Shown here: positions 4,701 through 18,401 of the stretch, piece after piece | Layout: each line of letters starts with the position of its first letter | Numbering within the stretch: position 1 is the first letter of the stretch | Assembly: GCA_963726455.1 (NCBI GenBank) | Contig: CAVSCK010000004.1 | Location: 1,088,001 to 1,152,000 of the forward strand | DNA: 64,000 nucleotides | From: an uncultured bacterium | GTDB taxonomy: Bacteria; Zixibacteria; MSB-5A5; CAIYYT01 | Direction: 5' to 3' | The notes under the pieces: generated by a model | What the model saw: the letters and a program-made list of their open reading frames with translations, nothing else | The model's database searches: none | What the model was told of the DNA's origin: nothing | Translations under genes and position numbers: made by a program

Positions 4701-4890
4701 GTCACATAGTCTATTGACGAAAGTTCATCCTACCTAATCTTTTTACCCGTAAAGCCCCGATTGTTTCAAATTATCGGTAAGCTATTGATTTAGCTTGAGA
4801 TGTCAACCAATAAGTGGAGACGTTTTCCCTGCGTCTTGGAGTCTCGTGGGACTACTCTGCCTGAGAACATCGAAGCAAATTATGTCCTAA

Positions 4891-4925
4891 ATCAAACAGG
4901 GCGGTCTTACGACCGCCCTGCTTTT
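4891..4925 (-). terminator. Rho-independent terminator of the hdr-hyd-mvh operon (possibly bidirectional)
   Basis: Perfect 10-bp stem CAGGGCGGTC/GACCGCCCTG with a GTAA loop on the minus strand. T-rich tails on both strands. Confidence 0.75.
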
Positions 4926-4965
4926 CACGGGAGCGAAACTGGGAAGAGAGCCTTCCACATGGGGA

Positions 4966-5442
4966 TTACTTACTCACGGTCTTGGCGGCAATCCAATTCT
5001 TCACCGCAGTTAAGGCCGTTTCCACTGATTTCTCGACTTGCGGCGTCATTTGTTCGCCGAGAGTTTCAACATCCTGCGCCTCAACTGCCAACACCTGAAT
5101 GTCTTTGGGCATCGCCATCTGCAGTTGTGTTCCGAGTTCAATGGCGGTTGGCAAATTGATCTGGTGGCTGTTGATGAGATTGTACGACGGCGTCAACGCA
5201 CCGGCGGGGAAAAAATGAACCGTGCCCGGCCGGGATTTGCCGGTTATGATCGCATCGACAATGAGAACCGCCTTGCGGCCTTTCAACAAATCCAACAATC
5301 CGAATCCGGCGGTCGGGGCAAATATCACTTCGACCATATCGTGATCGAGGCCGTTTTCATTCAGCCGGCGGGCAACCGCAGGGCCGAATGAGTCATCCGA
5401 AAGTATGTCGTTACCCAGGCATAAGATGAGAAGTGGTGTCAA
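4966..5442 (-). CDS. [NiFe]-hydrogenase maturation protease
   Basis: LCLGNDILSDDSFG, VLIVDAI and NSHQ motifs. Directly downstream of the hydrogenase large subunit. Confidence 0.92.
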   Translation of the reverse strand: MTPLLILCLGNDILSDDSFGPAVARRLNENGLDHDMVEVIFAPTAGFGLLDLLKGRKAVLIVDAIITGKSRPGTVHFFPAGALTPSYNLINSHQINLPTAIELGTQLQMAMPKDIQVLAVEAQDVETLGEQMTPQVEKSVETALTAVKNWIAAKTVSK

Positions 5443-6923
5443 ACGTTCCTCCGAGCAGTCTGGATTATTTCACCGGTTGCAGCATCATGTATGATTAATT
5501 CCAGCGGCATTTCGCCGGGAAGCGTGTGAGTCGCGCAACCAAAACAGGGATCGTACGCACGAAACGCCATTTCAATTCGATTGAGAATTCCGTCCGTAAC
5601 TGTCACGCCCTTCTTGATCAATCCCTCGGCGGCTTTCTTGATCGACATAGATATCGGCGCGTTGTTGTTGGTGGTGCCGACGATCAGGTTAGCTTCAGTG
5701 ACTATGCCGTTCCTGTCGGTCTTGTAGTGATGTGTCAGCGTCCCGCGCGGAGCTTCCACGATTCCGACCCCTTCGCCGACGATGCCGGTTGGCGGTTCGA
5801 GGATTTTGTCAGACGTGATTTCGTCGTCCTGCGCCTGCTCCAAAGTCGCCTCGGCGGCAAACATCAGTTCGACCACGCGAGCCCAATGAGTGGCCAACGT
5901 CGAATGAATCGGAGTCTTGCCGGTGCGGTCACCGGTCAGAGTTTCATACATGCGTTCGTATTCGGCCTGCGCCAGCGGGGTCGCCATACCGTCTGCCACG
6001 TTGCAGCGTGACAGCGGCGTCGCTTTGTACACACCCGAATCCATGCCGTCGACGAATCCCTTCCAGCCGACCTTCTTCAGGTACGGATACTTGAGATAGC
6101 TGTACGGCTCGACGTGTTCGGCGACATATTCGAGATAGTCCTTTGGCTCATATTCGGCGTGCTTGCTGCCGTCGGGAGCAGTAACTCTCACCTTGCCGTC
6201 ATAGAAGTTGGTCTTGCCGTTCGCATCCACCAGACCCATGTTGTAAGTCTTGTGCGTGAACATGTCGGAAATGATCAGATCGACATAACCCTTGTTCGCG
6301 AGCACGATGTCGTTCAACACCTGAATCGTGAACTTGGCGAACTCGACCATGCCCTTCGCCAGCTCGATAATCTCCTGCTGTTCTTGCTTGGTAACACGCT
6401 TGGTATTGCCGCCAGGAACAGCCGTTACCGGATGCACCTTCTTGCCGCCGATGATTTCGATTACACGTTGTCCGGCGGCACGCTGAGCAATAACTTTCTT
6501 GCCGGCATCAATTCCGACCTTGGCTACGACGCCGAGGATATTTCGTTCAGCCGGCGGCGCATCAGGACCGCAAACGAAATCGGGGCCACCCAGCGCATAG
6601 AAATGCGTGGTGTGGTCGCCCGCGTAGAACGCGTTGTACATCAATTCGCGCAACTTACGAGCTGCACTCGGAATCGTAACACCGTACACTGCGTCCGCTG
6701 CCTTTGCGGCAGCGAGATGATGCGCATCGGGACAGACGCCGCAAATGCGTGTCGTGATGCGGCACATTTCCTCGACCGGACGACCCTGCGCGAATTTCTC
6801 GAAGCCGCGCAGTTCCGGAACCTGGAAATAGCAGTTCGCCAAGCCGCCGTCATCATTGACGAACAGATGAATCTTGCCATGCCCTTCGAGACGGGTGATC
6901 GGGTCAATCAGTATCTGTTTCAT
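5439..6923 (-). CDS. mvhA: [NiFe]-hydrogenase large subunit, group 3c (MvhA-like)
   Basis: PITRLEGH, ELRGFE, L1 RICGVCPDAH, EAPRG, and L2 RAYDPCFGCATH with a cleavable C-terminal tail. Confidence 0.93.
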   Translation of the reverse strand: MKQILIDPITRLEGHGKIHLFVNDDGGLANCYFQVPELRGFEKFAQGRPVEEMCRITTRICGVCPDAHHLAAAKAADAVYGVTIPSAARKLRELMYNAFYAGDHTTHFYALGGPDFVCGPDAPPAERNILGVVAKVGIDAGKKVIAQRAAGQRVIEIIGGKKVHPVTAVPGGNTKRVTKQEQQEIIELAKGMVEFAKFTIQVLNDIVLANKGYVDLIISDMFTHKTYNMGLVDANGKTNFYDGKVRVTAPDGSKHAEYEPKDYLEYVAEHVEPYSYLKYPYLKKVGWKGFVDGMDSGVYKATPLSRCNVADGMATPLAQAEYERMYETLTGDRTGKTPIHSTLATHWARVVELMFAAEATLEQAQDDEITSDKILEPPTGIVGEGVGIVEAPRGTLTHHYKTDRNGIVTEANLIVGTTNNNAPISMSIKKAAEGLIKKGVTVTDGILNRIEMAFRAYDPCFGCATHTLPGEMPLELIIHDAATGEIIQTARRNV

Positions 6924-7891
6924 TGCTGCACCCTCCTTAACATCGAAGTCGGCAAGCTGAACCGATAGAACGTTCCCAGGGGATCAGGAATTGTATCCAG
7001 AATCTGTTCGACCTCCTGCTCGTCGATGGAATCTATCACACTCGCCAATGCCGACGCCATCTTGGCGCCCTGATCGCGCACGTTGGACGGCAACCCGTAG
7101 CAACCGCGACACGGCACACCCGCTTTGACGCACTTTGCGCCACATCCTGAACGCGTCGCCGGACCAAGGCAGACAATCCCCTGCTCCATCAGGCAAAGGT
7201 CGGGATCGGTGACCTTTTCAAAGGGACGAATGAACTTCTTGATCTTCTTGACATTGCGCTGGCGCGGGCATTCATCGCAACAGGATTTTTCGCTGGCGCC
7301 CAGCACCGTGCCTTTCGGCGGCAGCGGCTTGCTGTTCTTGAGAATGTCAACGACGGCATCAATCACAGCCGCGATCTGATTTGACTGTGGCGGACAACCG
7401 GGAATGATGTAGTCGACGTCCACGACCTGCGGAAGTGTGCGGACGGTGTTCCACAGGAACGGAATATGAACCATGCCTTCAGCAACTTTCACTTCCGGCT
7501 GCGGCATGATGCCGTTGCCCGGTTCCAGTGACGGCGACAGTTTGTAAACATATTCCATGATCGATTGTTTGTCATAGAAGTTTGCCAGTCCGGGAATACA
7601 ACCTTCGGAAGCGCAACTGCCAAAGGCGCACAGCACGACCGATTTGTCCCGCAGCAGGCGCGCGATTTCATAATTCTCGTCACTGCGAATCGCGCCATTG
7701 AAAAGAGTGAGTGTGATTTCTTTGTCCTGCATCTTGCGAACGTCGTCATACTTGAAATCAAGGGCGCAAGGCCAGAACACAATGTCGAAGAAGTCGGCGA
7801 CCTCAAGGATCTTCGCCTCGATATCGAGAATCGCGACATCGCAGCCCCCGCAGGAGGAGGCCCAGTATATTGCTAGTTTCGGTTTTGCCAT
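6920..7891 (-). CDS. mvhG: [NiFe]-hydrogenase small subunit (MvhG-like)
   Basis: SSCGGC, FGSCASEG, IPGCPP, CCDEC and CLGPATRSGC..C...PCRGC motifs. Alternative GTG start at 7900. Confidence 0.9.
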   Translation of the reverse strand: MAKPKLAIYWASSCGGCDVAILDIEAKILEVADFFDIVFWPCALDFKYDDVRKMQDKEITLTLFNGAIRSDENYEIARLLRDKSVVLCAFGSCASEGCIPGLANFYDKQSIMEYVYKLSPSLEPGNGIMPQPEVKVAEGMVHIPFLWNTVRTLPQVVDVDYIIPGCPPQSNQIAAVIDAVVDILKNSKPLPPKGTVLGASEKSCCDECPRQRNVKKIKKFIRPFEKVTDPDLCLMEQGIVCLGPATRSGCGAKCVKAGVPCRGCYGLPSNVRDQGAKMASALASVIDSIDEQEVEQILDTIPDPLGTFYRFSLPTSMLRRVQQ

Positions 7892-7896
7892 CTTGC

Positions 7897-8355
7897 TCAC
7901 TCCCCTGCCGCGACGGCAGCAGCTTCCGCCTGTTCAGGTACGAACGCCCATTCCTGCAAACGTAGCGGTCCGAGCGCACGAATCTGCGCGGTAAAGCTGT
8001 CGACCACTTCCTGAAAACGGGCTCCTTCAGATGCCGACACCCATTCGAGACGCAGGCGTTCCGGGGAGATACCCATGCCTTTCAGAATCCGCTTGGTGAT
8101 TGCCACGCGACGCATGCACTTGTGATTCCCCTCGACATAGTGGCAGTCACCGAAATGGCAACCGCACAAAAGCACGCCGTCAGCGCCGGCGCGAAACGAA
8201 TCGAGAACAAACCCGGGATCGACGCGGCCGGAACACATCACGCGCACCGTCATCACATTAGGGGCATACTTCATGCGCGCGGTGCCGGCCAGATCGGCTC
8301 CGGTATAACTGCACCAATTGCAGAGAAATCCGACAATACGTGGTTCGAAACTCAT
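7897..8355 (-). CDS. mvhD: Hydrogenase iron-sulfur subunit D (MvhD/FlpD)
   Basis: FLCNWCSYTGADLAG, RVMCSGRV, GCHFGDCHY and EWVSASEG motifs. Confidence 0.95.
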   Translation of the reverse strand: MSFEPRIVGFLCNWCSYTGADLAGTARMKYAPNVMTVRVMCSGRVDPGFVLDSFRAGADGVLLCGCHFGDCHYVEGNHKCMRRVAITKRILKGMGISPERLRLEWVSASEGARFQEVVDSFTAQIRALGPLRLQEWAFVPEQAEAAAVAAGE

Positions 8356-10115
8356 GTAAGCATCCCCTCGATCTGAGCATAGATTTGTTCATCGGTGAAT
8401 TGGCGGGCCATTATCGCGCCCGAAGGACAGGCGGCTACGCAAGTGCCGCAGCCCTTGCACTGAGCTGAATTCACGACGCTCACTTTCTTGGCTTCGTCAT
8501 AGCTGACCGCAGTGTACGGGCACATATCGTTGCAGATTTTGCAGCCGCTGCAGAATTCCTCCATGATTTCAGCGTAGGCCGCATCCATCATGATCTCGCC
8601 TTGTGCCATCAATTTCATCGCCTGTGCAGCGGCAGCCCCGCCCTGTGCGACGCTGTCGGGAATATCTTTGGCGCCCTGGCATGCTCCGGCCAAGAAAATG
8701 CCGTCGGTAGTCGTCGACACCGGAGCGAGCTTCGGATGCGCTTCGATAAACCAGCCATCAGCGCCGGTGGAGATATTGAATTTGCGCCCGAACTCCTTGG
8801 CATCCTTGCGGGCCTCCAAAGCCGTGCAGAGAATGACCATATCGACCGGTATTTCTCGATACTTGCCGATCAGCGTGTCTTCGCAACGGACGATCAGATG
8901 ACCTTCCTCGTCGCGGCGATAGCCCGATGGCACAACCTCTGCGCCCTTGCCGCGAATAACATTGACGCCTTCTTCGAGAATGCGAGCGTAGAATTCTTCG
9001 TATCCCTTTCCGAAGGCGCGCATGTCGATGTAAAGTTGGTATACCTCGGCAGAGGTCTTCTCTTTTACGAGATGCGAGAATTTCAACGCGTACATGCAGC
9101 ACACGCGGCTGCAATATTTATGGTGGTCATGATCACGGCTGCCAACACAATGCAGAATCGCAATCGCCCGCGGTTCTTCGCCGTTTTCGAGCACGATCTT
9201 GCCGCCGGTCGGTCCCGCGGCATTGTTCATGATCTCGAACTCTTCGGAAGAAATCACATTCGGTATTTTGCCGTAGCCATACTGTTTCATTGGCGTCGGA
9301 TCAAAACTGTCGAACCCGGTTGCAATCACCACAGCCCCAACTTCGACTTCTTCGGTTTTCGGGCCGTCGCCATAATCAATGCATTCTTTGGGACAGACCT
9401 TAGAACAAACCATGCAGCCGCCGGTCTTGTAGTGAATGCAGTTTTCACGTACGATCTGCGGGACGTTGGGCACCGCCTGTCGGAAAGGCAGGGTGATTGC
9501 GGCATTCGGCGACAAGTTCATCTCCTGATGGACGATGAAGCGATTTTCGATCTCTTCCATCTTGATGTATCCCGTCGGACAATGTTTGGCACAGGCGCCG
9601 CAGAGAATGCAGGAATCGGAATCGCGGCCGAAGGGCGTCGAAATATCGCGTTTGGCGCCCCGGTTGACGAATGCCAGCGCGTGCGCGCCGACAACTTCGT
9701 CGCAGATACGGACACACAGCCCGCACAGTATGCACGTGTAATTCCCCGTTCCCCAGCGCGGCTCGGGAATGCCAAGTTGTTCGGCGAGTCGCTGCAACAC
9801 AGGCACAGGCGAGCAGTTGGCCATCAGCATTTCCAAATTCGTCCGCCGAGCGTTGATCACGCGCGGCGTGTCCGTCACGATTTCGAGTCCATCCCAAACC
9901 GGGTAGTTGCAGGCCGTCACGATTTTCGACCAGCCACCTGCGCTGCGCGCCTCGACGCAACAGATGCGGCAAGCGGCGTACGGCACCATATAGGGATAGT
10001 AACAGAGCGTCGGAATCTCTACACCGATCGACTTGGCCGCCTCCAGAACATAAGTACCGTCGTCGACCTCGATCTCCTGACCGTCAATAGTAATTTTCAC
10101 TTTGTCCATAGCCAT
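8352..10115 (-). CDS. Fusion protein: HydA/NuoG-like N-terminal Fe-S domains plus the C-terminal half of heterodisulfide reductase HdrA
   Basis: N-terminal [2Fe-2S] (IPTLC..ACRIC..TAC) and 2[4Fe-4S] (CILCGLCVRIC, CILCGACAKHCP). Then the HdrA segment PFRQAVP, VIATG, CVGSRD..YCSRVCCMYALK, GIFLAGACQGAKDIP and a C-terminal ferredoxin. Confidence 0.88.
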   Translation of the reverse strand: MAMDKVKITIDGQEIEVDDGTYVLEAAKSIGVEIPTLCYYPYMVPYAACRICCVEARSAGGWSKIVTACNYPVWDGLEIVTDTPRVINARRTNLEMLMANCSPVPVLQRLAEQLGIPEPRWGTGNYTCILCGLCVRICDEVVGAHALAFVNRGAKRDISTPFGRDSDSCILCGACAKHCPTGYIKMEEIENRFIVHQEMNLSPNAAITLPFRQAVPNVPQIVRENCIHYKTGGCMVCSKVCPKECIDYGDGPKTEEVEVGAVVIATGFDSFDPTPMKQYGYGKIPNVISSEEFEIMNNAAGPTGGKIVLENGEEPRAIAILHCVGSRDHDHHKYCSRVCCMYALKFSHLVKEKTSAEVYQLYIDMRAFGKGYEEFYARILEEGVNVIRGKGAEVVPSGYRRDEEGHLIVRCEDTLIGKYREIPVDMVILCTALEARKDAKEFGRKFNISTGADGWFIEAHPKLAPVSTTTDGIFLAGACQGAKDIPDSVAQGGAAAAQAMKLMAQGEIMMDAAYAEIMEEFCSGCKICNDMCPYTAVSYDEAKKVSVVNSAQCKGCGTCVAACPSGAIMARQFTDEQIYAQIEGMLT

Positions 10116-10119
10116 ACTC

Positions 10120-12129
10120 CTACACCACCTCCGCCGCTATTTTTTTGATGGGCGGTTGCCACAACTCACGCGCACGTTCTTGCAGTTTGTCACCGTCACC
10201 ACGCTTGACACGTTTGATTGAGTTGTAGCGGCAAATCTGGTAACAGGCGCCGCATTGAATGCACTTGTCCTGCAGGATGTAGTGCAGACGCTTCGGTTCG
10301 CCGACGATCGCGCTGGTCGGGCATGATTTCAGGCACGCGTGACAACCATTGCAGGTGTTGTCGATGGCGTGCGACACCAGGTCTTTGCAGACACCGGCCG
10401 GACAGCGTTTGTCGATGACATGTGCCAGATATTCCTGACGGAAATAGCGGATGGTAGACAACACCGGATTCGGCGCGCTGCCGCCCAACTGGCACAGACT
10501 GGTGTCGATAATTACCTGCGATAGTTCTTCGAGATACTCGATGTCCTCGATCGTACCCTTTCCTTCACAAATCTTTTTGAGGATGTTCAACATCACGACC
10601 AATCCCTCGCGACAGGGAACGCATTTGCCGCAGCTCTCTTCCGTGAGGAAATTGATGAAGTATCGCGCGACATCGACCATGCAGGAATCCTCGTCCATCA
10701 CGATCATTCCTCCCGATCCCATCATCGATCCGGCCTTGGTCAATTCATCAAAGTCTATGGGCAGATCGAGCAGGCTGACCGCCTCGTCTTCCTCGCGGAT
10801 ATCGCCATGAGCTACCATACTGGCGTGAATTTTCGCTTCGGCAGTTTCGACAATGAGCGTGCCGCCCGACGGTCCGCCTGTCTGCACGGCCTTGAAGCGC
10901 TTGCCACCCGGCACACCGCCACCGATATCGTACAGAATTTCGCGCAAGGTAATTCCCATCGGTACTTCGACCAGGCCGGTGTTGTTGATCTTGCCGGTCA
11001 AAGCAAAAACCTTGGTACCTTTGGAACCCTCGGTGCCGATTCCGGCAAACCACGCCGAACCGCGCTCGATAATTGGTGGGACGTTCGCCCAGGTTTCGAC
11101 GTTGTTCAAGTTCGAGGGTTTCTCCCACAGTCCCGCTTCGACGGTGTGAATGTACTTGGCGCGCGGTTCGCCGACCTTGCCTTCCAGCGAAGCCATCAGC
11201 GCCGTCGACTCACCGCAGACAAACGCGCCGCCGCCGCGCGAAATCTCAATATCGAAACCAAAGCCGGTTCCGAGAATATTCTCGCCGAGCAGTCCGTAAT
11301 CGCGCGCTGCTTTGAGTGCGATCGCCAGGTTTTTGACTGCCAACGGGTACTCATTGCGGACATAGACAAAACCTTCGTGGCTGCCAATGGCGTAAGCGCC
11401 GATGATCATTCCTTCGATGACCTGATGCGGATTGCCTTCCAGCAGGGAGCGATCCATAAAAGCGCCCGGATCACCCTCATCCGCGTTGCAGATCACATAT
11501 TTGGGTTGTCCTTTGGCTGCCCGGCACGATGCCCATTTCTTTCCGGCCGGGTAGCCACCACCTCCGCGGCCGCGCAGACCGGATTTCTTGATCTCATCTA
11601 TGACCTGTTCGGCTTTCATCGTGGTTAATGCCTTGACAACCGCTTGATATCCGCCGAGCAGGATGTAGTCATTGATCGCGGTCGGATCCATCACGCCGTT
11701 CTTGCCGAAGATGATTCGCTGTTGCTTCTTGTAGAAAGGTATATCCTTCTCGTGTTTGATTATCTGGTTGGTTTGGGGATCGCGATACAACAGTTTATTG
11801 ACCAGTTGACCGCCTTTGACCGTCTGCTCCCAGATCAACTTGGCATCTGCCGGCTTGACGCGCTGGTAGAAGACTCTCTGGGGATGAACTACAACCAACG
11901 GTCCGCGCTCACAGAATCCGTGGCAGCCGGTTGACTTGATCTCAACTTCATTTTCCAGGCGATCCTTCTCGCATTCATCGCGGAACGCTTTCAGAACGCT
12001 CTCGCATCCACACGCCAGACAACCGGTCCCAGAGCAAACGGTGACCATCGTCTTGTTCGCGTTGCGGCTCTTTTCAAGATGATCTTTCAGCGCCAACAGG
12101 TCGGCGGTGGTTTTTAGTTTCTGGATCAT
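10120..12129 (-). CDS. HydB/NuoF-like FMN- and NAD(H)-binding subunit
   Basis: N-terminal [2Fe-2S] (CSGTGC, CHGFC), GLRGRGGGG, CNADEGDPGAFMDR, GAFVCGE, ESCGKCVPCREG, H..CPAGVC and a C-terminal 2[4Fe-4S]. Confidence 0.92.
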   Translation of the reverse strand: MIQKLKTTADLLALKDHLEKSRNANKTMVTVCSGTGCLACGCESVLKAFRDECEKDRLENEVEIKSTGCHGFCERGPLVVVHPQRVFYQRVKPADAKLIWEQTVKGGQLVNKLLYRDPQTNQIIKHEKDIPFYKKQQRIIFGKNGVMDPTAINDYILLGGYQAVVKALTTMKAEQVIDEIKKSGLRGRGGGGYPAGKKWASCRAAKGQPKYVICNADEGDPGAFMDRSLLEGNPHQVIEGMIIGAYAIGSHEGFVYVRNEYPLAVKNLAIALKAARDYGLLGENILGTGFGFDIEISRGGGAFVCGESTALMASLEGKVGEPRAKYIHTVEAGLWEKPSNLNNVETWANVPPIIERGSAWFAGIGTEGSKGTKVFALTGKINNTGLVEVPMGITLREILYDIGGGVPGGKRFKAVQTGGPSGGTLIVETAEAKIHASMVAHGDIREEDEAVSLLDLPIDFDELTKAGSMMGSGGMIVMDEDSCMVDVARYFINFLTEESCGKCVPCREGLVVMLNILKKICEGKGTIEDIEYLEELSQVIIDTSLCQLGGSAPNPVLSTIRYFRQEYLAHVIDKRCPAGVCKDLVSHAIDNTCNGCHACLKSCPTSAIVGEPKRLHYILQDKCIQCGACYQICRYNSIKRVKRGDGDKLQERARELWQPPIKKIAAEVV

Positions 12130-12647
12130 GCCGCCTCCGTTCCGCTTGCGGATTTCTTCTTGTGCAGCAACTCATCAAGCATCTTGTCAACCTTGGTGAC
12201 CGTCATGTGGCCGTAGTAGACTCCGTTTGCCGTCACCAACGGACCCAGGGCGCAGGCGCCCAGGCAGTTGACAGTTTCGAGACTCACTTCCCCGTCAGGA
12301 GAGGTGTCTCCTGACTGAAGTCGAAGATCGCGCTCCAGTTTGTCGACAATCACTTTCGCCTGCCGAACGTGACAGGCCGTGCCCGTGCAGACGCAGATAT
12401 GATTTCTGCCGGTCGGTTTGAGCGTGAAGGCGCGATAGAAAGTCGCGACACCGTAAATTTGAGCCAGCGGCAGTTTCATGTTCTTGGACACTGCGCGCAA
12501 TGCGTCCTCCGGCAGATAGCGATAATGCTTCTGAATATCCTGAAGTATCATAATCAGCGCGGTCGGTTTGGCGCCATATTCGCCGACGATCTCTTCAATC
12601 TTGCTGTCGAGATCATAGGCGGTGTTAGCTGCAACTGTTATGGTCAT
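12126..12647 (-). CDS. HydC/NuoE-like [2Fe-2S] subunit
   Basis: YGVATFY, CTGTACH and CLGACALGP motifs. Confidence 0.92.
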   Translation of the reverse strand: MTITVAANTAYDLDSKIEEIVGEYGAKPTALIMILQDIQKHYRYLPEDALRAVSKNMKLPLAQIYGVATFYRAFTLKPTGRNHICVCTGTACHVRQAKVIVDKLERDLRLQSGDTSPDGEVSLETVNCLGACALGPLVTANGVYYGHMTVTKVDKMLDELLHKKKSASGTEAA

Positions 12648-13633
12648 GGCTTAACTCCTTCCAGCGCTTCTTCCGCAGTCGTCTCCACATTCTCCGGCAT
12701 CGGTTGCGCGCCGGTCAGAGGCGTCAGGTCGTGTTTTGGCCCCATCGACCACTTGTCCTGCACGTCCAGCAATCGCCCTTCGCGATAGACCAGATCGCCC
12801 AGGATCATGCGGCGATTCTGTGGATACGGCACGCTGGGACAGGCCTCATAGCATGAGCCGCAACTGTTGCACTTCAGCGGATCAACGTACCGGGCTTTCT
12901 TCTTGATCTTGACTTTGAAGTTGCCGATGTAGCCCTCGACGTTTTCGATCTCCGCGTAAGTCACCAGCTTGATGTTGGGATGCTTCCCGACCGAAACCAT
13001 CTTCGGCGTCAGAATGCAGGCAGCGCAATCGAGGGTCGGGAAGGTCTTATCAAAGTGTGACATGTGTCCGCCGATGGAAGCATCGCGTTCGACCAATATC
13101 ACCTCGTATCCGGCGTCCGCCATTTGAAGCGCGGCTTCAATACCTGCAATGCCCGCGCCAACGACCAGGACTCGGCGAGTAATCGGCACACGACGCATTT
13201 CCAGCGGTACCTGGTAGCGAACGCGCGCGACGGCAGCTTTGACGAGCGCTGTGGCTTTAGCCGTCGCGGCTTTGGGATCAATCGTCACCCAACTTACCTG
13301 TTCGCGCACGTTGGCCATTTCGAACAGGTAGCGGTTCATCCCGGCAACTTCCACCGCTTTACGGAAAGTATTTTCGTGCATCAGCGGGCTGCAGGCAGCA
13401 ACTACGACGCGATCGAGTTTGAGTTCCTTGATATCTTTCTGAATCATTTCCTGGCCGGGGTCGGAGCACATGAAACGATAATGTCTGGCGACCACTACGC
13501 CGGGGAGCGACTTGGCGGCCTCGGCGACTTTGGCGACATCCACCGTCTTGGCGATGTTGGTGCCGCAATGACACACGTACACGCCGATGCGCGGGATGCC
13601 GTTGCCGCCGCCAACCTTGAGATTGTCAGTCAT
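12644..13633 (-). CDS. hdrA: Heterodisulfide reductase subunit A, N-terminal half (split HdrA)
   Basis: RIGVYVCHCG, MCSDPGQ, ACSP, GAGIAG FAD motif and KTFPTLDC. Ends after a single CNSCGSCYEACP motif. Confidence 0.9.
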   Translation of the reverse strand: MTDNLKVGGGNGIPRIGVYVCHCGTNIAKTVDVAKVAEAAKSLPGVVVARHYRFMCSDPGQEMIQKDIKELKLDRVVVAACSPLMHENTFRKAVEVAGMNRYLFEMANVREQVSWVTIDPKAATAKATALVKAAVARVRYQVPLEMRRVPITRRVLVVGAGIAGIEAALQMADAGYEVILVERDASIGGHMSHFDKTFPTLDCAACILTPKMVSVGKHPNIKLVTYAEIENVEGYIGNFKVKIKKKARYVDPLKCNSCGSCYEACPSVPYPQNRRMILGDLVYREGRLLDVQDKWSMGPKHDLTPLTGAQPMPENVETTAEEALEGVKP

Positions 13634-14511
13634 GCCCTAACCTCCTTTGCACAGGCGATTAGCTTGTCCGGCGAGATCAGAAAATCGTTCAATCCCATCC
13701 GGGCGGGCGGAACTCCAAGCGCGACGCCGACCAGGTGGCTGAAATAGACGATCGGTATGTTGAAGTTCCGGTCGAAGGCCTGATTTATCTTCTTCTGATA
13801 GGCCTCCAGATTCATTTGGCAAAGCGGACACGCGGTGGCAATCAGCTCCGCCCCATTATCCACAGCCGCTTGCAAGAGAGTCATATTCAATTTCAGGGCG
13901 ACACTTTCTTCGGTAGTCATCAACATGCCGCCGCAGCAGCGCACTTTGCCGGGAAAGTTGGTTACTTCGGCGCCAAGCGCGCGCAACAGATTGTCCATCG
14001 TGATTGGATCATCGACGTCGTCGAAGAAGCCATAAGGCCTTACAATCTGGCAGCCGTAGTAAGGCGCGACTTTGATACCCGTCAGTGGATTGACGACTTT
14101 CGCTTTGATAGCTTCAATGCCGGTGTCGTTGACGAGAATATCGACTGGGTGACGTACCTCGGTCTTGGCATCATACGAGAGATTGGCGGCGCCAAGCGCT
14201 TGATTGATCTTATCGCGCTCTTTCGGATCCCAGCAAAGATGCCGATTGGTCTTCCGCAGAATTGTGAAACAACTGCTGCAGGGAGCGCAGACGTCCATTC
14301 CCATTTTCTGCGCGATCGCGAGATTACGGGCGCTGATCGAAAAGGCGACCGTGTTGTTGACGGACATGTACATCGTGGCGCCGCAGCAGTTCCAGTCTTC
14401 AATTTCGTGCAGGCCGATGCCCAGCAACTTGAAAACCTCGCGGATCGACTTGTCGTACGGACTCGCTGCCGTTTCCAAGCTGCAACCGGGATAGTAGGCG
14501 TAGTCCGACAT
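13630..14511 (-). CDS. hdrB: Heterodisulfide reductase subunit B
   Basis: Two CCG domains: YYPGC..WNCCG..PCSSC and YYGC..RCCGG..ACPLC. Confidence 0.93.
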   Translation of the reverse strand: MSDYAYYPGCSLETAASPYDKSIREVFKLLGIGLHEIEDWNCCGATMYMSVNNTVAFSISARNLAIAQKMGMDVCAPCSSCFTILRKTNRHLCWDPKERDKINQALGAANLSYDAKTEVRHPVDILVNDTGIEAIKAKVVNPLTGIKVAPYYGCQIVRPYGFFDDVDDPITMDNLLRALGAEVTNFPGKVRCCGGMLMTTEESVALKLNMTLLQAAVDNGAELIATACPLCQMNLEAYQKKINQAFDRNFNIPIVYFSHLVGVALGVPPARMGLNDFLISPDKLIACAKEVRA

Positions 14512-15098
14512 CAGTTCTCTCCTAGCTGGTTTGCGCGTTTGATAATTGCGCGAACTTCGTTGATGCGTTTGATCCTGCTGGGTAACACCGCCAGCCGTCC
14601 GCGGCGAAACATGGCCAAACCGAAGCCCGCCATTGTGAACATTTTCACAAAATTGGACTTTAGTAGATACCGAACAACGAGTCCAAGCTCGTGGTTTCTG
14701 CCGTAACGGTAGACGTTGTCTATGAACGCCTTGGACAGCGAATGCACCGGAAATTTGGCCGGATAAATCTTACGCGACATCGCGATACGCTTGAGCGCGT
14801 ACAATGTGTCGGTCACCCTGATTCCCGAAGGACAGCGGACGGTACACGAGTAACACGAAGCGCAGATCCAGATCGTGCGGCTATGAAGAATATCTTCGAT
14901 CCGTCCAGCACGAAACAACGCCACCGTCTGTCGCGGCGTGATGTCCATCGCATATGACACTGGACAGGCGCCACTGCAGGTGCCGCACTGAATGCACGAC
15001 TTGATCTTGTCGCCTTCCGGGACGTTCTTCAACTGTCCCCAGAAAGCCGATCGTAACTCGGCCTCGCTCTTGGGAAAAGGTTCGATTTTTTCGATCAT
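14511..15098 (-). CDS. hdrC: Heterodisulfide reductase subunit C
   Basis: CIQCGTCSGACP and WICASCYSCTVRCP motifs. Confidence 0.93.
   Translation of the reverse strand: MIEKIEPFPKSEAELRSAFWGQLKNVPEGDKIKSCIQCGTCSGACPVSYAMDITPRQTVALFRAGRIEDILHSRTIWICASCYSCTVRCPSGIRVTDTLYALKRIAMSRKIYPAKFPVHSLSKAFIDNVYRYGRNHELGLVVRYLLKSNFVKMFTMAGFGLAMFRRGRLAVLPSRIKRINEVRAIIKRANQLGEN
14633..14650. promoter_or_regulatory. Perfect Rex-box (also CRP/FNR-type) palindrome inside hdrC
   Basis: TTGTGAA-CATT-TTCACAA matches the Rex consensus TTGTGAA-N4-TTCACAA exactly. Confidence 0.5.
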
Positions 15099-15223
15099 AC
15101 ATACTCCCGCATCTCGGAAAGTTCGGAACCGTTATCGCTGCCGCGACAATGCTCCGGCACACGTCTTCCCCGCGTGCTCCAGAAGGTACACTAAACTTGT
15201 CTTTCATCGTTTAGTGTGTCTAT

Positions 15224-15252
15224 ATTCTACTCCCCGCACCGGCACGTGTCAA
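15224..15252 (-). promoter_or_regulatory. Sigma70-type promoter of the hdr-hyd-mvh operon
   Basis: TTGACA-N17-TAGAAT on the minus strand, about 125 nt upstream of hdrC. Confidence 0.7.
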
Positions 15253-15561
15253 GAGATTTTTTTCACAAAGTCATCATATTGTTTGTGTCGGCACTCTCCC
15301 GCAATCACCTTAACTGGCGCATGTCAGAACACAGGTTACGCCCTCCGGTTTTTCACCTACATCGCCGCTTCCTGGCACAAGTATCCGGCAATTGAGCTTA
15401 CCGATGCAGCCCAAATCCGATCTCTTTTTTGCGTTTTCAGAACCCAGAATTGTGATTGCGTATTACATTGCCGCGCAATATATAAGCTTTGTATTTTAGT
15501 CGGGCAGCGGGCAGGATGGGAACTTCACCGGAAAGGACGCGTAAGCTCTTTATACAACGCT

Positions 15562-17244
15562 ATGGACGCCAAGCAATACACTACAGAAAGCCGATTCTCG
15601 GAATCGCGGACGAAAACCGTCAGCGAGTTCTATGACGAAGTCAAGGGGCTCCTCCAGACTAACGCACTGGCAGTACTGATCTACCATCGGCTCCGCATGG
15701 AGCTGGAGGTTCGACTGTTCATGCCGTCCGAACTGCGGACGTTTTCTCTGCGCGAGATTGCCCCCAACGAGTTCGAGGAATTGGCTCTTGCCGACCTTCC
15801 GCCGCGAAACCCGGTCTATCTGGCTTTGTGCGACATTGTGGGTTATTGCCCCTCCGGTCACAAGGCATATCTCGTTCACGCCGAAGGGTATATATCGGCC
15901 ATGTTCCTGCTTTTTGCGCAGGAAGACCTGCAACCATTATCGGAATATCTGGAGCGTCACATTGAGCTATTCTCCTTGAAGCTCCACCATGCGATTCTCG
16001 TCGACGCTTACCACCGCAGCATGCTGGAACTGGAACTGCTTCAGGAAACTGGCGAAGTACTCTCCATGTCATTCCACATGGAGGAGGTATTCAAGGGAAT
16101 TGTCAGTGCCATACAGAAACTGCATCCGTTCGACGCACTGGGTATCTTCATTCTGAGCCCCAATAACGAGACCATGGAAGAGATCTTCTCAAAGGGTTAC
16201 GAATCCGAATCATCACGGCACATGCTGGAAATAAAGGCCGATCGCGGCCTGGTCGGCTGGGTCACCAAGACCGGCGAGCCGGTGATTGTGCCCAACGTCC
16301 AGGAGGATCCCCGATACGTCAATACCCGGGAAACCACTCACTCAGAGCTGGTCGTGCCGCTCTATTCCGGCAAACAGGTAATCGGCGCCTTTAATTTGGA
16401 GTCCGATCAATATGACGCTTATTCCCCGCTCGATCTGGAAATGGTGCGGGCGTTTGCCAACCAGGTCTCGCTATCAGTTACGCGGGCACGGCTTTACAAG
16501 GAACTCGTGATCAAGAATCGCATTGACGATCAACTGGAAGTGGCGCGGGACATTCAAAAATCTTTCCTTCCCGCCGGGCCACCGAAATATACCGGATTCG
16601 ATTTTGACGCGATCAATATCTCGTCTGAGCAGGTTGGAGGCGACTATTTTGACTTTATCCCGATTGTCGACCAGCAATTGGGGGTCACAATAGCCGATGT
16701 TTCCGGCAAAGGGCTGCCCGCGTCATTAATCATGGCGTCGTATCGCGCGTCTCTTATAGCAGAGATAAGGAACAACTATGCCATCCGGACAATCATGCGC
16801 AAAGTGAACAATCTGATCTGTGAATCTGTAGAACGAGGAAACTTTGTCACGGCTGTCTATGGCGTCTTGGATACCAGAAATCGGGTGTTCACTTTCTCCA
16901 ACGCCGGTCATAATCCACCATTTGTCTTGCGCAAATCAGGGGAAGTCGAATTCCTCACGGATGGTGGGCTTATCTTAGGAATTATGCCGGATCGCGACTA
17001 TCAGGAGCGCCCGCTTCACATTGGCACCGGCGATATTCTGGTATTGTATACCGACGGAGTTACCGATTCAGAGAATGAGAAGGGGGATCAGTTCGGCACG
17101 GAGCGGCTGGTGGAATTAGTTCGATTAAACAAGCGGTTGCCGGCCAGGGAAATCAGAACCAGAATAGTCACGGCCATTGACCAATTTCGCACCGGTGACG
17201 GCCAGCCGGATGACCTGACGCTGGTCGTAATCAAGTCTGAATAG
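15562..17244 (+). CDS. GAF-domain SpoIIE/RsbU-type PP2C serine phosphatase
   Basis: GAF domain (GLVGWV..P.IVPNV..DPRY, SELVVPL) plus VGGDYFD, ADVSGKG, NAGH, YTDGVTD and DDLT. Start moved to ATG 15562 because the longer ORF overlaps hdrC and its promoter. Confidence 0.9.
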   Translation: MDAKQYTTESRFSESRTKTVSEFYDEVKGLLQTNALAVLIYHRLRMELEVRLFMPSELRTFSLREIAPNEFEELALADLPPRNPVYLALCDIVGYCPSGHKAYLVHAEGYISAMFLLFAQEDLQPLSEYLERHIELFSLKLHHAILVDAYHRSMLELELLQETGEVLSMSFHMEEVFKGIVSAIQKLHPFDALGIFILSPNNETMEEIFSKGYESESSRHMLEIKADRGLVGWVTKTGEPVIVPNVQEDPRYVNTRETTHSELVVPLYSGKQVIGAFNLESDQYDAYSPLDLEMVRAFANQVSLSVTRARLYKELVIKNRIDDQLEVARDIQKSFLPAGPPKYTGFDFDAINISSEQVGGDYFDFIPIVDQQLGVTIADVSGKGLPASLIMASYRASLIAEIRNNYAIRTIMRKVNNLICESVERGNFVTAVYGVLDTRNRVFTFSNAGHNPPFVLRKSGEVEFLTDGGLILGIMPDRDYQERPLHIGTGDILVLYTDGVTDSENEKGDQFGTERLVELVRLNKRLPAREIRTRIVTAIDQFRTGDGQPDDLTLVVIKSE

Positions 17245-17309: not shown

Positions 17310-18401
17310 ATGAGTCGGAAATGGCTTACCCTGGCCGGAATCGCACTTTTCGCTTTAACTTCCCTGATCGTTTCAAGTTGCAGCAAGGACAAAGGCGCGG
17401 TAAATACTGACCCCTCCAACACCGTAATTGTTAAGCTCGTGTCAACTCCTCCGGACACGCTTGACCTGATAAATGATCCCGGCTGGGCTAGCGCTGAAGA
17501 AACCAGTATTCGCATTGGCGTGGACGCAGCTCACAGCAATGATCTCGGCGTCGGCCTGGTCAAAGTCCAAGCCATTAGCGACAATACGAACCTGTACATG
17601 AAGTTCAACTGGCGCGATTCGAGCCAGTCCATCCGCCCGGGCTATTGGAGTTACCTGCCGGACACAGCTGCCTGTCCCGGAAAAGTCTGGGCACAGAATC
17701 TCGGCGCCAACTGCACCGAAATCGATAACGCCGTCACTCCCCGTTGGGAGAACGAGGACGTATTGGCTCTGATGCTGGATATGGGAACCAACGGCACTGA
17801 CAAAGCCGATTGCGGCAACACCTGCCATCTTCTCATTGACACGACCATGCAGGGACTCAGACACTATACTTCGGGCGGAACGGTAGATGCCTGGGTCTGG
17901 CGTGCCGGACGCACCGATCCTCTGCATCTGGCGGATGACGAATGCTGGGGACCGCGCGAGCAGCTCACACGCCATGACTCATTCACGGTCGAGATCTACA
18001 CAATGAATGCCGACGAGCGGGAGGACAACAGACTACCGATTAAGATGCATTCGTCCGGTCATGGGTTTACCGGCAACGTACTCTTGGAACCGGAAACTAT
18101 TCCGTTTGCTCAGGATATAACAGTCGGCTGGGCTCCGCGAGACGGCCTCCCCGGTTGGATCATCAAGCCGGATTGGTATTACAACAAAGTTTCACGTTAT
18201 GATGTCAAGGCCAAATCCGAGTACGACGATGTTGTCAAGCGCTGGACCGTTGTTTTGTATCGAAAGCTAACGACGACTGACCTGCAGGAAGACGTCAATT
18301 TCAACGACGGCAGAAAAGAATATCAGGCGACCATGGCGGTGATGAATCACGCGTTTGAGCGGCACTCCGGATCACTGCCGTTCATCATCAAATTCCCTTA
18401 G
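17310..18401 (+). CDS. Lipoprotein of the ethylbenzene-dehydrogenase-gamma (EB_dh / DOMON-like) heme-binding family
   Basis: Lipobox VSSC, LYMKFNWRD, EDVLALM, CGNTCH, VDAWVWRAGRT, WTVVLYRKLTT..DV and a C-terminal HSGS. Confidence 0.7.
   Translation: MSRKWLTLAGIALFALTSLIVSSCSKDKGAVNTDPSNTVIVKLVSTPPDTLDLINDPGWASAEETSIRIGVDAAHSNDLGVGLVKVQAISDNTNLYMKFNWRDSSQSIRPGYWSYLPDTAACPGKVWAQNLGANCTEIDNAVTPRWENEDVLALMLDMGTNGTDKADCGNTCHLLIDTTMQGLRHYTSGGTVDAWVWRAGRTDPLHLADDECWGPREQLTRHDSFTVEIYTMNADEREDNRLPIKMHSSGHGFTGNVLLEPETIPFAQDITVGWAPRDGLPGWIIKPDWYYNKVSRYDVKAKSEYDDVVKRWTVVLYRKLTTTDLQEDVNFNDGRKEYQATMAVMNHAFERHSGSLPFIIKFP

Follow-up and report, generated by a model that had tools for sequence, protein, structure and literature searches.

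Gene organization of the locus

The window analysed is a 64,000-nucleotide stretch of DNA from an uncultured bacterium of the Zixibacteria. On its minus strand, positions 4966–15098 form one translationally coupled operon encoding ten proteins, in the order hdrC-hdrB-hdrA(N half)-bfuC-bfuB-[bfuA N-domain::hdrA C half]-mvhD-mvhG-mvhA-protease:

14511..15098, minus strand: hdrC, 195 aa, 2x[4Fe-4S] ferredoxin-like (Pfam Fer4_8/Fer4_17), which opens the conserved gene order
13630..14511, minus strand: hdrB, 293 aa, two CCG domains (Pfam CCG, two stretches, E 2.3e-27)
12644..13633, minus strand: hdrA N half, 329 aa (phmmer against 5odc_A and 24-sequence alignment)
12126..12647, minus strand: bfuC (nuoE/hydC-like), 173 aa, thioredoxin-like [2Fe-2S] subunit (Pfam 2Fe-2S_thioredx, E 5.2e-48)
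10120..12129, minus strand: bfuB (nuoF/hydB-like), 669 aa (Pfam and PDB matches)
8352..10115, minus strand: fusion of a bfuA N-terminal domain to the hdrA C half, 587 aa
7897..8355, minus strand: mvhD, 152 aa (Pfam FlpD, E 3.2e-53)
6920..7900, minus strand: mvhG, [NiFe]-hydrogenase small subunit, 326 aa (Pfam Oxidored_q6)
5439..6923, minus strand: mvhA, [NiFe]-hydrogenase large subunit, 494 aa (Pfam NiFeSe_Hases, E 8.8e-40)
4966..5442, minus strand: hydrogenase maturation protease, 158 aa (Pfam HycI)

HdrA is not encoded here as one continuous polypeptide: the genes for its two halves lie 2.5 kb apart, with bfuC and bfuB between them. The hdrB/hdrA_N, hdrA_N/bfuC, bfuC/bfuB and fusion/mvhD junctions are ATGA overlaps, bfuB is separated from the fusion gene by a 4-nt gap, and a GGAGG-like site lies upstream of every start. 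A first-pass annotation of this DNA had listed the two open reading frames, the nuoE-like and nuoF-like genes between them, and junctions made of ATGA overlaps or a 4-nt gap, all of which are present as described.

Pfam places MvhD and the small and large hydrogenase subunits beside hdrA, the arrangement of an Mvh-type (HdrA-linked) [NiFe] hydrogenase, and the MvhA translation shows RICGVC and DPCFGC, with both CxxC pairs of a large subunit. BfuB has the domains of its family, namely an N-terminal [2Fe-2S] domain, an FMN/NADH domain, SLBB, NADH_4Fe-4S and a C-terminal 2x[4Fe-4S] domain (Pfam 2Fe-2S_thioredx 23–100, Complex1_51K 180–351, NADH_4Fe-4S 486–570, Fer4 590–640). Its matches among solved chains include 7t2r_B (E 9.7e-228), 9mqx_B (E 3.2e-223) and 8a6t_B (residues 4–638 to 3–627).

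An HdrA encoded in two pieces

The following features were mapped within the two genes:

12836..12871, minus strand: motif M0 (N-half C255, C258, C261, C265-P), CxxCxxCxxxCP, aligned to the first motif of 5odc_A
12647..12835, minus strand: N-half tail, residues 267–329 (24-sequence alignment)
9531..10115, minus strand: BfuA/HydA(N)-like part, fusion residues 1–195 (Pfam Fer2_4 at 5–83 and Fer4_7 at 127–182; 9mqx_A)
9702..9734, minus strand: motif M1 (fusion C128, C131, C134, C138)
9576..9611, minus strand: motif M2 (fusion C169, C172, C175, C179-P)
9441..9575, minus strand: linker of HdrA type within the inserted ferredoxin domain; it ends in PFRQAVP and corresponds to the 5odc_A linker in the alignment
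9390..9440, minus strand: motif M3 (fusion C226, C234, C237, C241), aligned to the second motif of 5odc_A
8352..9389, minus strand: remaining HdrA C half (5odc_A alignment, invariant Cys)

In a phmmer search of PDB chains, N-half residues 14–272 match residues 4–262 of the methanogen HdrA 5odc_A (E 1.6e-102) and fusion residues 165–586 match its residues 242–650 (E 6.2e-107), so that the two polypeptides jointly cover residues 4–650 of the solved protein. The N half consists of the N-terminal Cys-cluster domain, the FAD Rossmann motif GxGxxG, the first Cys motif of the inserted ferredoxin domain (M0) and a 63-aa tail. The C half supplies the second motif of that domain (M3) and the second FAD/thioredoxin-reductase part, which carries the CSRVCC cluster motif; it ends in a 2x[4Fe-4S] ferredoxin domain. 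The inserted ferredoxin domain is thus complete in its motifs, but M0 lies on one polypeptide and the linker and M3 on the other.

Cysteine invariance was judged on 24-sequence alignments, whose members share 54–91% identity. All 16 cysteines of M0–M3 are kept in 24/24 sequences, as are, in the N half, the GxGxxG glycines, C21, C23, C56, C81 and C206, the equivalent of methanogen HdrA Cys197. In the fusion, Cys 323, 335, 339, 340, 522–532 and 553–563 are likewise invariant, which accounts for CSRVCC and the eight C-terminal cysteines. The N-half tail contains the conserved stretches P.P..RR..LG..V.KEG and GPxHDLTxLTGAQPMPE.

The first part of the fusion matches a different protein: residues 4–195 correspond to residues 3–195 of 9mqx_A, the 247-aa BfuA of Wor-Bfu (E 2e-33). 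It comprises a [2Fe-2S] domain (C38, C49, C52, C69) and a [4Fe-4S] ferredoxin domain with M1 and M2, and its twelve cysteines are invariant in the 24 sequences. No motif for a His-ligated cluster was detected in this part by Pfam search or in the alignment.

The first-pass annotation had the N half stop just after the first motif of the inserted domain, and HdrA resume about 200 residues into the fusion. The 5odc_A alignment supports the former, as does a divergent split relative (L082), whose BfuA motif is still followed by a linker of canonical HdrA type, as expected for a break right after M0. The latter applies to the genuinely HdrA-derived part, which begins with the linker ending in PFRQAVP (around residue 210) and continues with M3; the HMMER match to HdrA itself starts at about residue 163, because M2 (C169–C179) resembles the first motif of HdrA.

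Conservation of the split

Among 59 related loci on genome contigs, 47 encode the BfuA::HdrA_C fusion; the relatives are labelled Zixibacteria, KSB1, Calditrichota and Acidobacteriota. Wherever upstream DNA was available (42 fusion loci), the N half has its own gene upstream, which stops shortly after M0, with the same split point and gene order in 42/42 loci from several phyla. The halves are separated directly by bfuC-bfuB in 35 of these and by the same pair plus extra regulator-like genes in five; in the remaining two nothing lies between. The full-length fusion occurs in at least 40 of 201 sampled genomes of the source phylum, among the matches listed, and the best 120 protein clusters (579–604 aa) cover 98–100% of it.

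These comparative data refute the reading that the split stems from sequencing or assembly errors, from a frameshift or from pseudogene decay. Frameshifts do occur in these genes in four loci from error-prone assemblies (L022, L057, L068, L083). However, dozens of independent assemblies repeat the same arrangement. The N-half tail is also conserved, no cofactor ligand varies, and the halves have an intact bfuC-bfuB pair of about 2.5 kb between them. The conserved split point bears out the earlier view of an evolved operon rather than a frameshift. The source genome, scored 100% complete, contains no other HdrA, and its sole HdrA is therefore the one in two pieces.

The same loci speak to whether the operon simply houses an Hdr/Mvh complex next to an independent enzyme of BfuABC type. 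Gene neighbourhood alone is no proof of a complex, but in 47 loci BfuA and the HdrA C half form one covalent chain, and the bfu genes sit inside the split hdrA with ATGA overlaps; I consider two free-standing enzymes highly improbable.

Modeling of the HdrA halves

A complex model of the N half with the fusion protein scored 0.83 over three runs (0.84, 0.83, 0.83), compared to 0.34 for the best of three controls. It passes a mark cleared by 116 of 157 solved complexes and by 2 of 215 mismatched pairs, although HdrA structures have been solved and the pass may reflect memory of intrachain contacts, so that it speaks for likeness to HdrA and not for binding. The runs share at least 91% of their contacts, with a partner pLDDT of at least 82. 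The fusion by itself is modelled poorly, with a mean pLDDT of 54 and residues 136–271 below 50. Rossmann strands are predicted to pair across the chains (fusion 259–265 with N-half 155–159), and the modelled interface includes N-half residues 254–291, among them tail residues 266–279 and 283–291. The model supports co-folding of the two halves into a single HdrA. Together with the lack of a second HdrA in the genome and a re-fused single-chain relative (described below), it upholds the earlier proposal that both halves belong to one protein.

The predicted interface places M0 beside the three motifs of the fusion. M2 lies in it entirely (169–178), and M1 only at residues 127–128 and 137; all four M3 cysteines contact the N half in the model, while M1 C131 and C134 are absent from the contact list. 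I infer that M0 and M3 would form the HdrA ferredoxin domain across the two chains, with M1 and M2 forming the adjoining BfuA domain. An interface complete for M2 and partial for M1 would fit this pairing, but does not prove it.

The motifs could also be assigned so that the halves bind each other without sharing the ferredoxin domain, contrary to the first-pass annotation, which had the two chains share both of its clusters. A complete domain would then be made up of M2, linker and M3 within the fusion, and M0 would pair with M1 or adopt another cluster mode. In HMMER alignments with three solved HdrAs, M2, linker and M3 indeed span the entire inserted domain, and all of M2 is found in the modelled interface. 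On the other hand, the spacing of M1 and M2 matches the BfuA/HydA ferredoxin domain (9mqx_A residues 3–195), the predicted contacts favour M3 over M1, and the canonical linker in L082 is that of a break right after M0. An unshared domain therefore seems unlikely.

Comparison with known systems

The subunits encoded by hdrC, hdrB, hdrA, mvhD, mvhG and mvhA are those of the methanogen MvhAGD-HdrABC complexes (5odc, 8rvu, 7bkb, 9sfi), but here the host is a bacterium, HdrA consists of two polypeptides, its C half is joined to BfuA, and the operon additionally encodes BfuC and BfuB. In Desulfovibrio, FlxABCD-HdrABC also joins HdrABC and an NADH-linked module, and DsrC is discussed as its thiol/disulfide partner; there the module is unrelated (not NuoEF-type), and neither a split HdrA nor a hydrogenase is known from it.

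The nearest known kinds are HdrL/HdrA-NfnB and Bam-Bfu. HdrL of Desulfobacterium autotrophicum and the HdrA-NfnB fusions HdrA9-11 of ANME-1 likewise carry a second NAD(P)H-reacting flavin module in the inserted ferredoxin domain, and two possible bifurcation sites were already noted by the authors (PMC9012536, PMC2702500, each in part). These inserts are GltD/NfnB-like and contained in one polypeptide, whereas here a three-subunit Bfu (HydABC-type) unit is associated with a split HdrA; Pfam found no Fer4_20 match in either HdrA half of the window. Bam-Bfu, the class II benzoyl-CoA reductase BamBCDEFGHI, is the only described enzyme found in the literature searched that unites an HdrA-type module with BfuABC homologues, and two bifurcation steps in series have been proposed for it (PMC9304861, in part). 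Its catalytic unit is the tungsten-containing BamBC, and it lacks a [NiFe] hydrogenase, in contrast to the present operon with its Mvh hydrogenase, whose ten proteins contain no AOR-type (BamB) domain by Pfam. In the literature searched, no statement was found that the Bam HdrA-like subunit is split or fused to the BfuA homologue.

Within the Bfu family (HydABC, NiFe-HydABCSL, Wor-Bfu 9mqx, Nfn-Bfu), the full length of BfuB and of BfuC is matched by solved chains of HydB/HydC type. The BfuA part, without the His-ligated cluster motif, resembles the 'Type 2' BfuA with A1, A2 and A4 clusters only (PMC9304861, in part). Unlike in that family, BfuA here shares a polypeptide with half of another bifurcating flavoprotein, and a whole Hdr-Mvh unit would serve as the 'third substrate' module; no such type was found in PMC9304861 (in part). 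No description of a split HdrA carrying a Bfu module was found in the literature searched.

Three relatives (L054, L059, L079) carry a GltD/NfnB-like NAD(P)H domain (Fer4_20 plus a second Pyr_redox_2) at about the site of the Bfu module. L054, an unsplit, re-fused single chain, is nested among the split forms (SH-aLRT 95). Within one phylum, hdrCB-X-mvhDGA operons have as X a canonical HdrA, an HdrL with GltD/NfnB insert, the L054 form or the split Bfu form. From the shared location of these domains and the nesting of L054, this site on the low-potential arm of HdrA acts as a socket into which NAD(P)H modules are fitted. The first-pass annotation had stated that HdrA tolerates insertions at this position, citing HdrL. 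Insertions near the inserted ferredoxin domain are both published (PMC2702500, PMC9012536, each in part) and seen here, but the position in Desulfobacterales HdrL is close rather than identical, with the insert after the FPQAVP linker and the break described here before it.

Proposed electron path

In the interpretation I favour, with a probability of roughly 0.7, the operon encodes one multi-subunit complex on the Mvh-Hdr plan, in which a two-polypeptide HdrA is wired at its inserted ferredoxin domain to a Bfu module. The N half would provide M0 as well as the N-terminal cluster domain and the opening part of the FAD domain; the C half would be covalently preceded by a small BfuA with one [2Fe-2S] and two [4Fe-4S] clusters and no His-ligated cluster; and BfuC and BfuB, by homology, would be the NAD(H)/FMN and ferredoxin-reacting core of HydABC (Bfu) type. 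Given the fusion of BfuA to the C half and the position of bfuC and bfuB between the halves, the chain of Bfu clusters would start directly at the inserted ferredoxin domain, which is described as the low-potential exit of HdrA (PMC9012536, PMC13518236, both in part). This agrees with the first-pass proposal of a HydCBA-like NAD(H)/FMN module attached at that exit.

MvhAG would oxidise H2 and pass electrons via MvhD to the HdrA FAD. From there, one electron would travel to HdrCB and a disulfide, perhaps of DsrC, and the other through the split ferredoxin domain and BfuA to BfuBC, reducing NAD+ and ferredoxin. Two energy-coupling devices thus appear to be hard-wired in series and, if this holds, electrons would be bifurcated in two stages, perhaps reversibly. 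Thermodynamically, a Bfu core supplied at very low potential would not have to bifurcate, and the two-stage scheme would therefore operate only at low H2 pressure.

The same architecture may instead carry electrons in another direction. BfuBC could confurcate NADH and reduced ferredoxin into HdrA, with Mvh releasing the electrons as H2 and HdrBC acting as a redox valve or driven in reverse, or the module could be a plain NADH dehydrogenase input without bifurcation of its own. Bfu enzymes are described as reversible, the authors of the Bam-Bfu work propose that BfuABC supplies mid-potential electrons to the HdrA module (PMC9304861, in part), and the HdrL-type NAD(P)H domain has been read as an electron input (PMC2702500, PMC9012536, each in part). 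However, the mid-potential entry of HdrA, on the MvhD side, is already occupied by a complete Mvh hydrogenase from the same operon, and the Bfu chain is attached at the domain that is the exit in the methanogen enzymes. I regard these alternative directions as possible, but rather doubtful.

Two lineages, L025 and L028, retain the split and the BfuA domain but lack bfuCB between the halves, and their genomes contain only complex-I-like NuoF matches (36–45% identity). The BfuBC core is thus dispensable for the split itself.

Operon organization

Ten genes run along the minus strand from 15098 down to 4966, with GGAGG-like sites upstream of the gene starts and start/stop overlaps at nearly all junctions. 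ATGA overlaps join hdrB to hdrA_N, hdrA_N to bfuC, bfuC to bfuB, and the gene for the BfuA::HdrA_C fusion to mvhD, while bfuB is separated from the fusion gene by a 4-nt gap. The bfu genes are named after the Bfu family of NAD(H)/FMN/FeS bifurcating enzymes (HydABC-type).

Genes of the operon and their Pfam assignments
hdrC, minus strand: 2x[4Fe-4S] protein
hdrB, minus strand: two CCG domains
12644-13633, minus strand: hdrA_N (HdrA N half, 329 aa), FAD protein that ends in a single Fer4 motif
12126-12647, minus strand: bfuC, NuoE-type [2Fe-2S] protein
10120-12129, minus strand: bfuB (669 aa), NuoF/HydB-type, carrying an additional [2Fe-2S] domain at the N terminus and a 2x[4Fe-4S] domain at the C terminus
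8352-10115, minus strand: BfuA::HdrA_C fusion (587 aa), [2Fe-2S] Fer2_4 and a ferredoxin domain first, Pyr_redox_2 and another ferredoxin domain last
mvhD, minus strand: FlpD
small and large [NiFe]-hydrogenase subunits, minus strand
HycI protease, minus strand

In the PDB, the bfuB product has full-length matches to HydB-type chains, both those of bifurcating hydrogenases and that of 9mqx (E 1e-217 to 1e-228), the latter being the entry of PMC12318220.

Divergent to the operon lies a gene for a 750-aa GAF and SpoIIE/PP2C phosphatase protein (14992-17244, plus strand), which as called is long enough to run into the 5' end of hdrC. It may encode a regulator of the operon, or the real start codon may be located further downstream. 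Also on the plus strand are a secreted-looking EB_dh family protein (17310-18401; ethylbenzene dehydrogenase gamma-like, haem-binding), and a single protein in which part of a homocysteine S-methyltransferase is joined to an MTHFR domain (53-1267).

Two halves of a single HdrA

Searched against all PDB chains, both HdrA-like products match 5odc_A, the HdrA of the solved Mvh-Hdr complex. Residues 14-272 of the N half correspond to its residues 4-262 (E 1.6e-102), and residues 165-586 of the fusion to residues 242-650 (E 6.2e-107). The first 195 residues of the fusion match the 247-aa BfuA chain of a tungsten-oxidoreductase Bfu complex (9mqx_A, E 2e-33), as well as the N-terminal parts of HydA. 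The genome of the window, 3.64 Mb on 5 contigs, has a completeness score of 100%, and a search of the whole of it returned no second match to either HdrA half. The PDB alignments, Pfam assignments and gene junctions together confirm the proposal of the first-pass annotation, that of an HdrA split by a HydC-HydB-HydA(N)-like module.

Four cysteine motifs, labeled M0 to M3, surround the junction.

Cysteine motifs at the split junction
M0: N-half C255, C258, C261, C265; aligns with the first motif of the HdrA inserted ferredoxin domain
M1: fusion C128, C131, C134, C138; BfuA/HydA ferredoxin-domain spacing with M2
M2: fusion C169, C172, C175, C179; BfuA/HydA ferredoxin-domain spacing with M1
M3: fusion C226, C234, C237, C241; aligns with the second motif of the HdrA inserted ferredoxin domain

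Because HMMER also places M2 on the first HdrA motif, residues 242-262 are covered by both HdrA alignments. In a divergent split relative (locus L082), the BfuA motif is followed by a canonical HdrA-type linker; the break therefore falls directly after M0, leaving the linker (PFRQAVP) and M3 with the C-terminal half, which is where the initial reading of the sequence had put it. The 24 aligned sequences (54-91% identity) share every one of the 16 cysteines of M0-M3. Equally invariant are the [2Fe-2S] ligands, the CSRVCC motif, the cysteines of the C-terminal ferredoxin domain, the FAD glycines, and C206 of the N half, the counterpart of HdrA Cys197.

Conservation of the split

A genome scan with one genome per species, mapped with the ten operon proteins, yielded 59 related loci (designated by L-numbers, with coordinates internal to each locus). 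The BfuA::HdrA_C fusion is present in 47 of these, five of which lie on contigs that stop before the upstream genes. In all 42 fusion loci with upstream DNA, a separate gene for the N half is found upstream on the same strand. bfuC and bfuB sit directly between the halves in 35 of the 42, further genes accompany them in five (L046, L048, L049, L050 and L052), and nothing separates the halves in two (L025 and L028). The remaining 12 loci comprise ten Desulfobacterales HdrL-type genes, that is, HdrA with a GltD/NfnB-like insert, the unsplit L054 and a fragment (L056). A conserved split point and gene order, as found here, bear out the first-pass view that the arrangement has evolved.

The locus records are labelled Zixibacteria, KSB1, Calditrichota, GN15 and Acidobacteriota, some further labels looking doubtful. 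Within the phylum of the window, the full-length fusion occurs in at least 40 of the 201 sampled genomes, among the matches listed. Other genomes in the sample have genes of HdrL size or a canonical HdrA, with open frames of ∼620-700 aa. The best 120 protein-database clusters are all 579-604 aa long and 66-90% identical, covering 98-100% of the fusion.

At L083 (genome G098, 4813-6565), and also at L022, L057 and L068, the fusion and neighbours such as mvhA appear in overlapping pieces. These broken genes look like assembly frameshifts and not further natural splits.

In every locus, the N half stops 20-65 residues after M0. Its tail (12647-12835 in the window) contains a conserved P.P..RR..LG..V.KEG stretch and, at most loci with bfuC-bfuB directly downstream, the sequence GPxHDLTxLTGAQPMPE. 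The latter is missing where bfuC-bfuB are absent or set apart by other genes, and could be what the Bfu core docks onto.

Structural model of the two halves

The fusion and the N half were modelled as a complex, each supplied as a 24-row alignment. The prediction scored 0.83 (0.84, 0.83 and 0.83 in three runs) versus 0.34 for the best of three controls. Because HdrA has been solved, this pass may stem from structures already known to the predictor, and it speaks for likeness, not for binding. That mark was attained by 116 of the 157 solved complexes, as against 2 of the 215 mismatched pairs, counts that apply only roughly here because I used my own alignments. Contact agreement between the runs was at least 91%, and partner pLDDT at least 82. 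Folded alone with AlphaFold2 from a 24-row alignment, the fusion gave a model of low quality, its mean pLDDT being 54 and residues 136-271 falling below 50.

In the model, the contacts with the least error link residues 259-265 of the fusion to residues 155-159 of the N half, such that the Rossmann sheet of the FAD domain is built across the two chains. The modelled interface further brings N-half residues 254-291, corresponding to M0 and the tail, against fusion residues 169-178 (M2), 183-268 (from the linker through M3 and further on) and a small number of M1 residues. An arrangement in which M0 and M3 form the HdrA ferredoxin domain beside that of BfuA agrees with these contacts but is not proven by them. 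The initial interpretation is largely borne out, with the sharing of clusters between chains being the part that I infer.

Variants and evolutionary history

Within the phylum of the window, four kinds of HdrA are found between hdrCB and mvhDGA.

Kinds of HdrA between hdrCB and mvhDGA
Canonical HdrA: L069-L076
HdrL with GltD/NfnB-like insert: L079
Unsplit form, 1243 aa: L054 5646-9377 (= L080), comprising N half and tail, GltD-like domain, M1, M2, linker, M3 and C half
Split Bfu form: L081, L082, L084

The site of the inserted ferredoxin domain is a socket for NAD(P)H modules. Among the 120 longer relatives of the N half listed, the L054 protein alone covers the tail (97% of the query), and 27 are HdrL-sized (1110-1272 aa).

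The concatenated HdrA core (56 rows) was placed on an unrooted tree, obtained by a quick search with no archaeal outgroup. Loci with a short, frameshifted or truncated N or C match were left out (for example L010, L013, L022, L026, L027, L031, L034, L035, L041, L042, L044, L047, L053, L056, L057, L063, L068, L077 and L078), as was L080, a duplicate of L054. In this tree, L054 is nested among split forms (SH-aLRT 95) and therefore looks like a natural re-fusion, in which the GltD-like domain appears to have taken the place of BfuC, BfuB and the [2Fe-2S] domain of BfuA. L025 (2622-5317) and L028 (2304-4993) are also nested among split forms; the N half and the fusion are adjacent there, without bfuC or bfuB between them, and the NuoF matches in both genomes are complex-I-like only (36-45% identity). 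At L046 (3411-7047), and similarly at L048, L049, L050 and L052, genes for a CBS and ATPase-like protein, a PHP-domain protein and a histidine-kinase-like ATPase lie between the N half and bfuC, and a small unassigned ORF precedes bfuB; the Bfu genes of these loci are only 42-57% identical to those of the window.

One clean origin of the split was considered and dropped. The split L082 and L084 group with canonical HdrAs (SH-aLRT 100), and an AU test rejects trees in which a single branch sets the 37 split rows and L054 apart from all others (p 0.00096, delta lnL 142, for a group defined post hoc on an unrooted tree). The history therefore involves more than one gain, recombination or re-fusion.

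Relation to known enzymes and possible function

The flavin-based bifurcation of HdrA and the non-canonical FMN/FeS bifurcation of Bfu enzymes represent two of the four known electron-bifurcating enzyme families. HdrA is described as having four domains, with electrons exiting via the inserted ferredoxin domain, and a 500-aa NfnB-like insertion in that domain of ANME-1 HdrA9-11 is described as "potentially giving ... 2 electron bifurcation sites" (PMC9012536). HdrL is presented as an HdrA/glutamate-synthase fusion with an NADH site (PMC2702500). The Bfu family and the BfuA types are defined in PMC9304861, where Bam-Bfu is reported to have an HdrA-type module together with BfuABC, and two bifurcations in series are proposed. 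The available text of PMC3903129 names Zixibacteria genes MvhADG/HdrABC, with no mention there of a split, and that of PMC5736913 describes other complexes. In the literature searched, Bam-Bfu alone combines HdrA and Bfu in one enzyme, and no description of the split HdrA-Bfu arrangement was found, though the HdrA-module review of Appel et al. (2021) or the supplements of PMC9304861 may list it.

The nearest known kinds are HdrL/HdrA-NfnB and Bam-Bfu, and the locus is a variant of these with its own feature set: a split HdrA, a BfuA fusion, a Bfu module and a [NiFe] hydrogenase. The chaining of bifurcating modules is a question raised for the intractable Bam complex. For this question the locus is a natural, compact and widespread case, given its spread within one phylum and into further phyla of sediments. 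With BfuA fused to one half of HdrA, its wiring is apparent from the gene structure. Judging from the genes, the "Mvh/Hdr" annotation in Zixibacteria, KSB1, Calditrichota and Acidobacteriota would change to an enzyme coupling H2, NAD(H), ferredoxin and a disulfide. A ferredoxin domain reconstituted from two chains would, if true, be an unusual structural solution, and the locus is a defined target for structural biologists.

A tentative reading, to which I give a probability of about 0.3, is that of a two-stage bifurcation machine making ferredoxin-level reductant from trace H2, the HdrA flavin splitting H2 electrons between the disulfide and the Bfu chain, and the Bfu FMN/FeS site splitting them between NAD+ and ferredoxin. 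The junction would be a two-polypeptide ferredoxin domain, and an evolutionary socket at which NfnB-like or Bfu modules are swapped by gene fission and re-fusion. 

As the mechanism of the complex, I infer that H2 is oxidised by MvhAG, its electrons reaching the HdrA FAD via MvhD. The high-potential electron would pass through HdrC and the CCG clusters of HdrB to the disulfide, and the low-potential one through the two-chain ferredoxin domain and the [4Fe-4S] and [2Fe-2S] clusters of BfuA to BfuBC, where NAD+ and ferredoxin would react. Under the H2 pressures of sediments, electrons would be raised by the first split roughly to the level that Bfu enzymes normally obtain from H2, and the second split would yield NADH and reduced ferredoxin. 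Alternatively, electrons may run in the reverse direction, or the module may be a plain NADH input.

A search with TIGR02064 found no DsrA in the genome of the window. Outside the window, a cluster in the same genome (L088 3565-5890; G000:C4, ∼1339.5-1341.9 kb) encodes a DsrC-family protein of 110 aa (L088 3565-3897) with a two-cysteine Cx10CV motif at its C terminus. Next come a membrane protein of 213 aa and an HdrD/DsrK-like protein of 448 aa, in which Fe-S and CCG-type motifs are present. HdrBC may have the DsrC-type protein as its thiol/disulfide partner.
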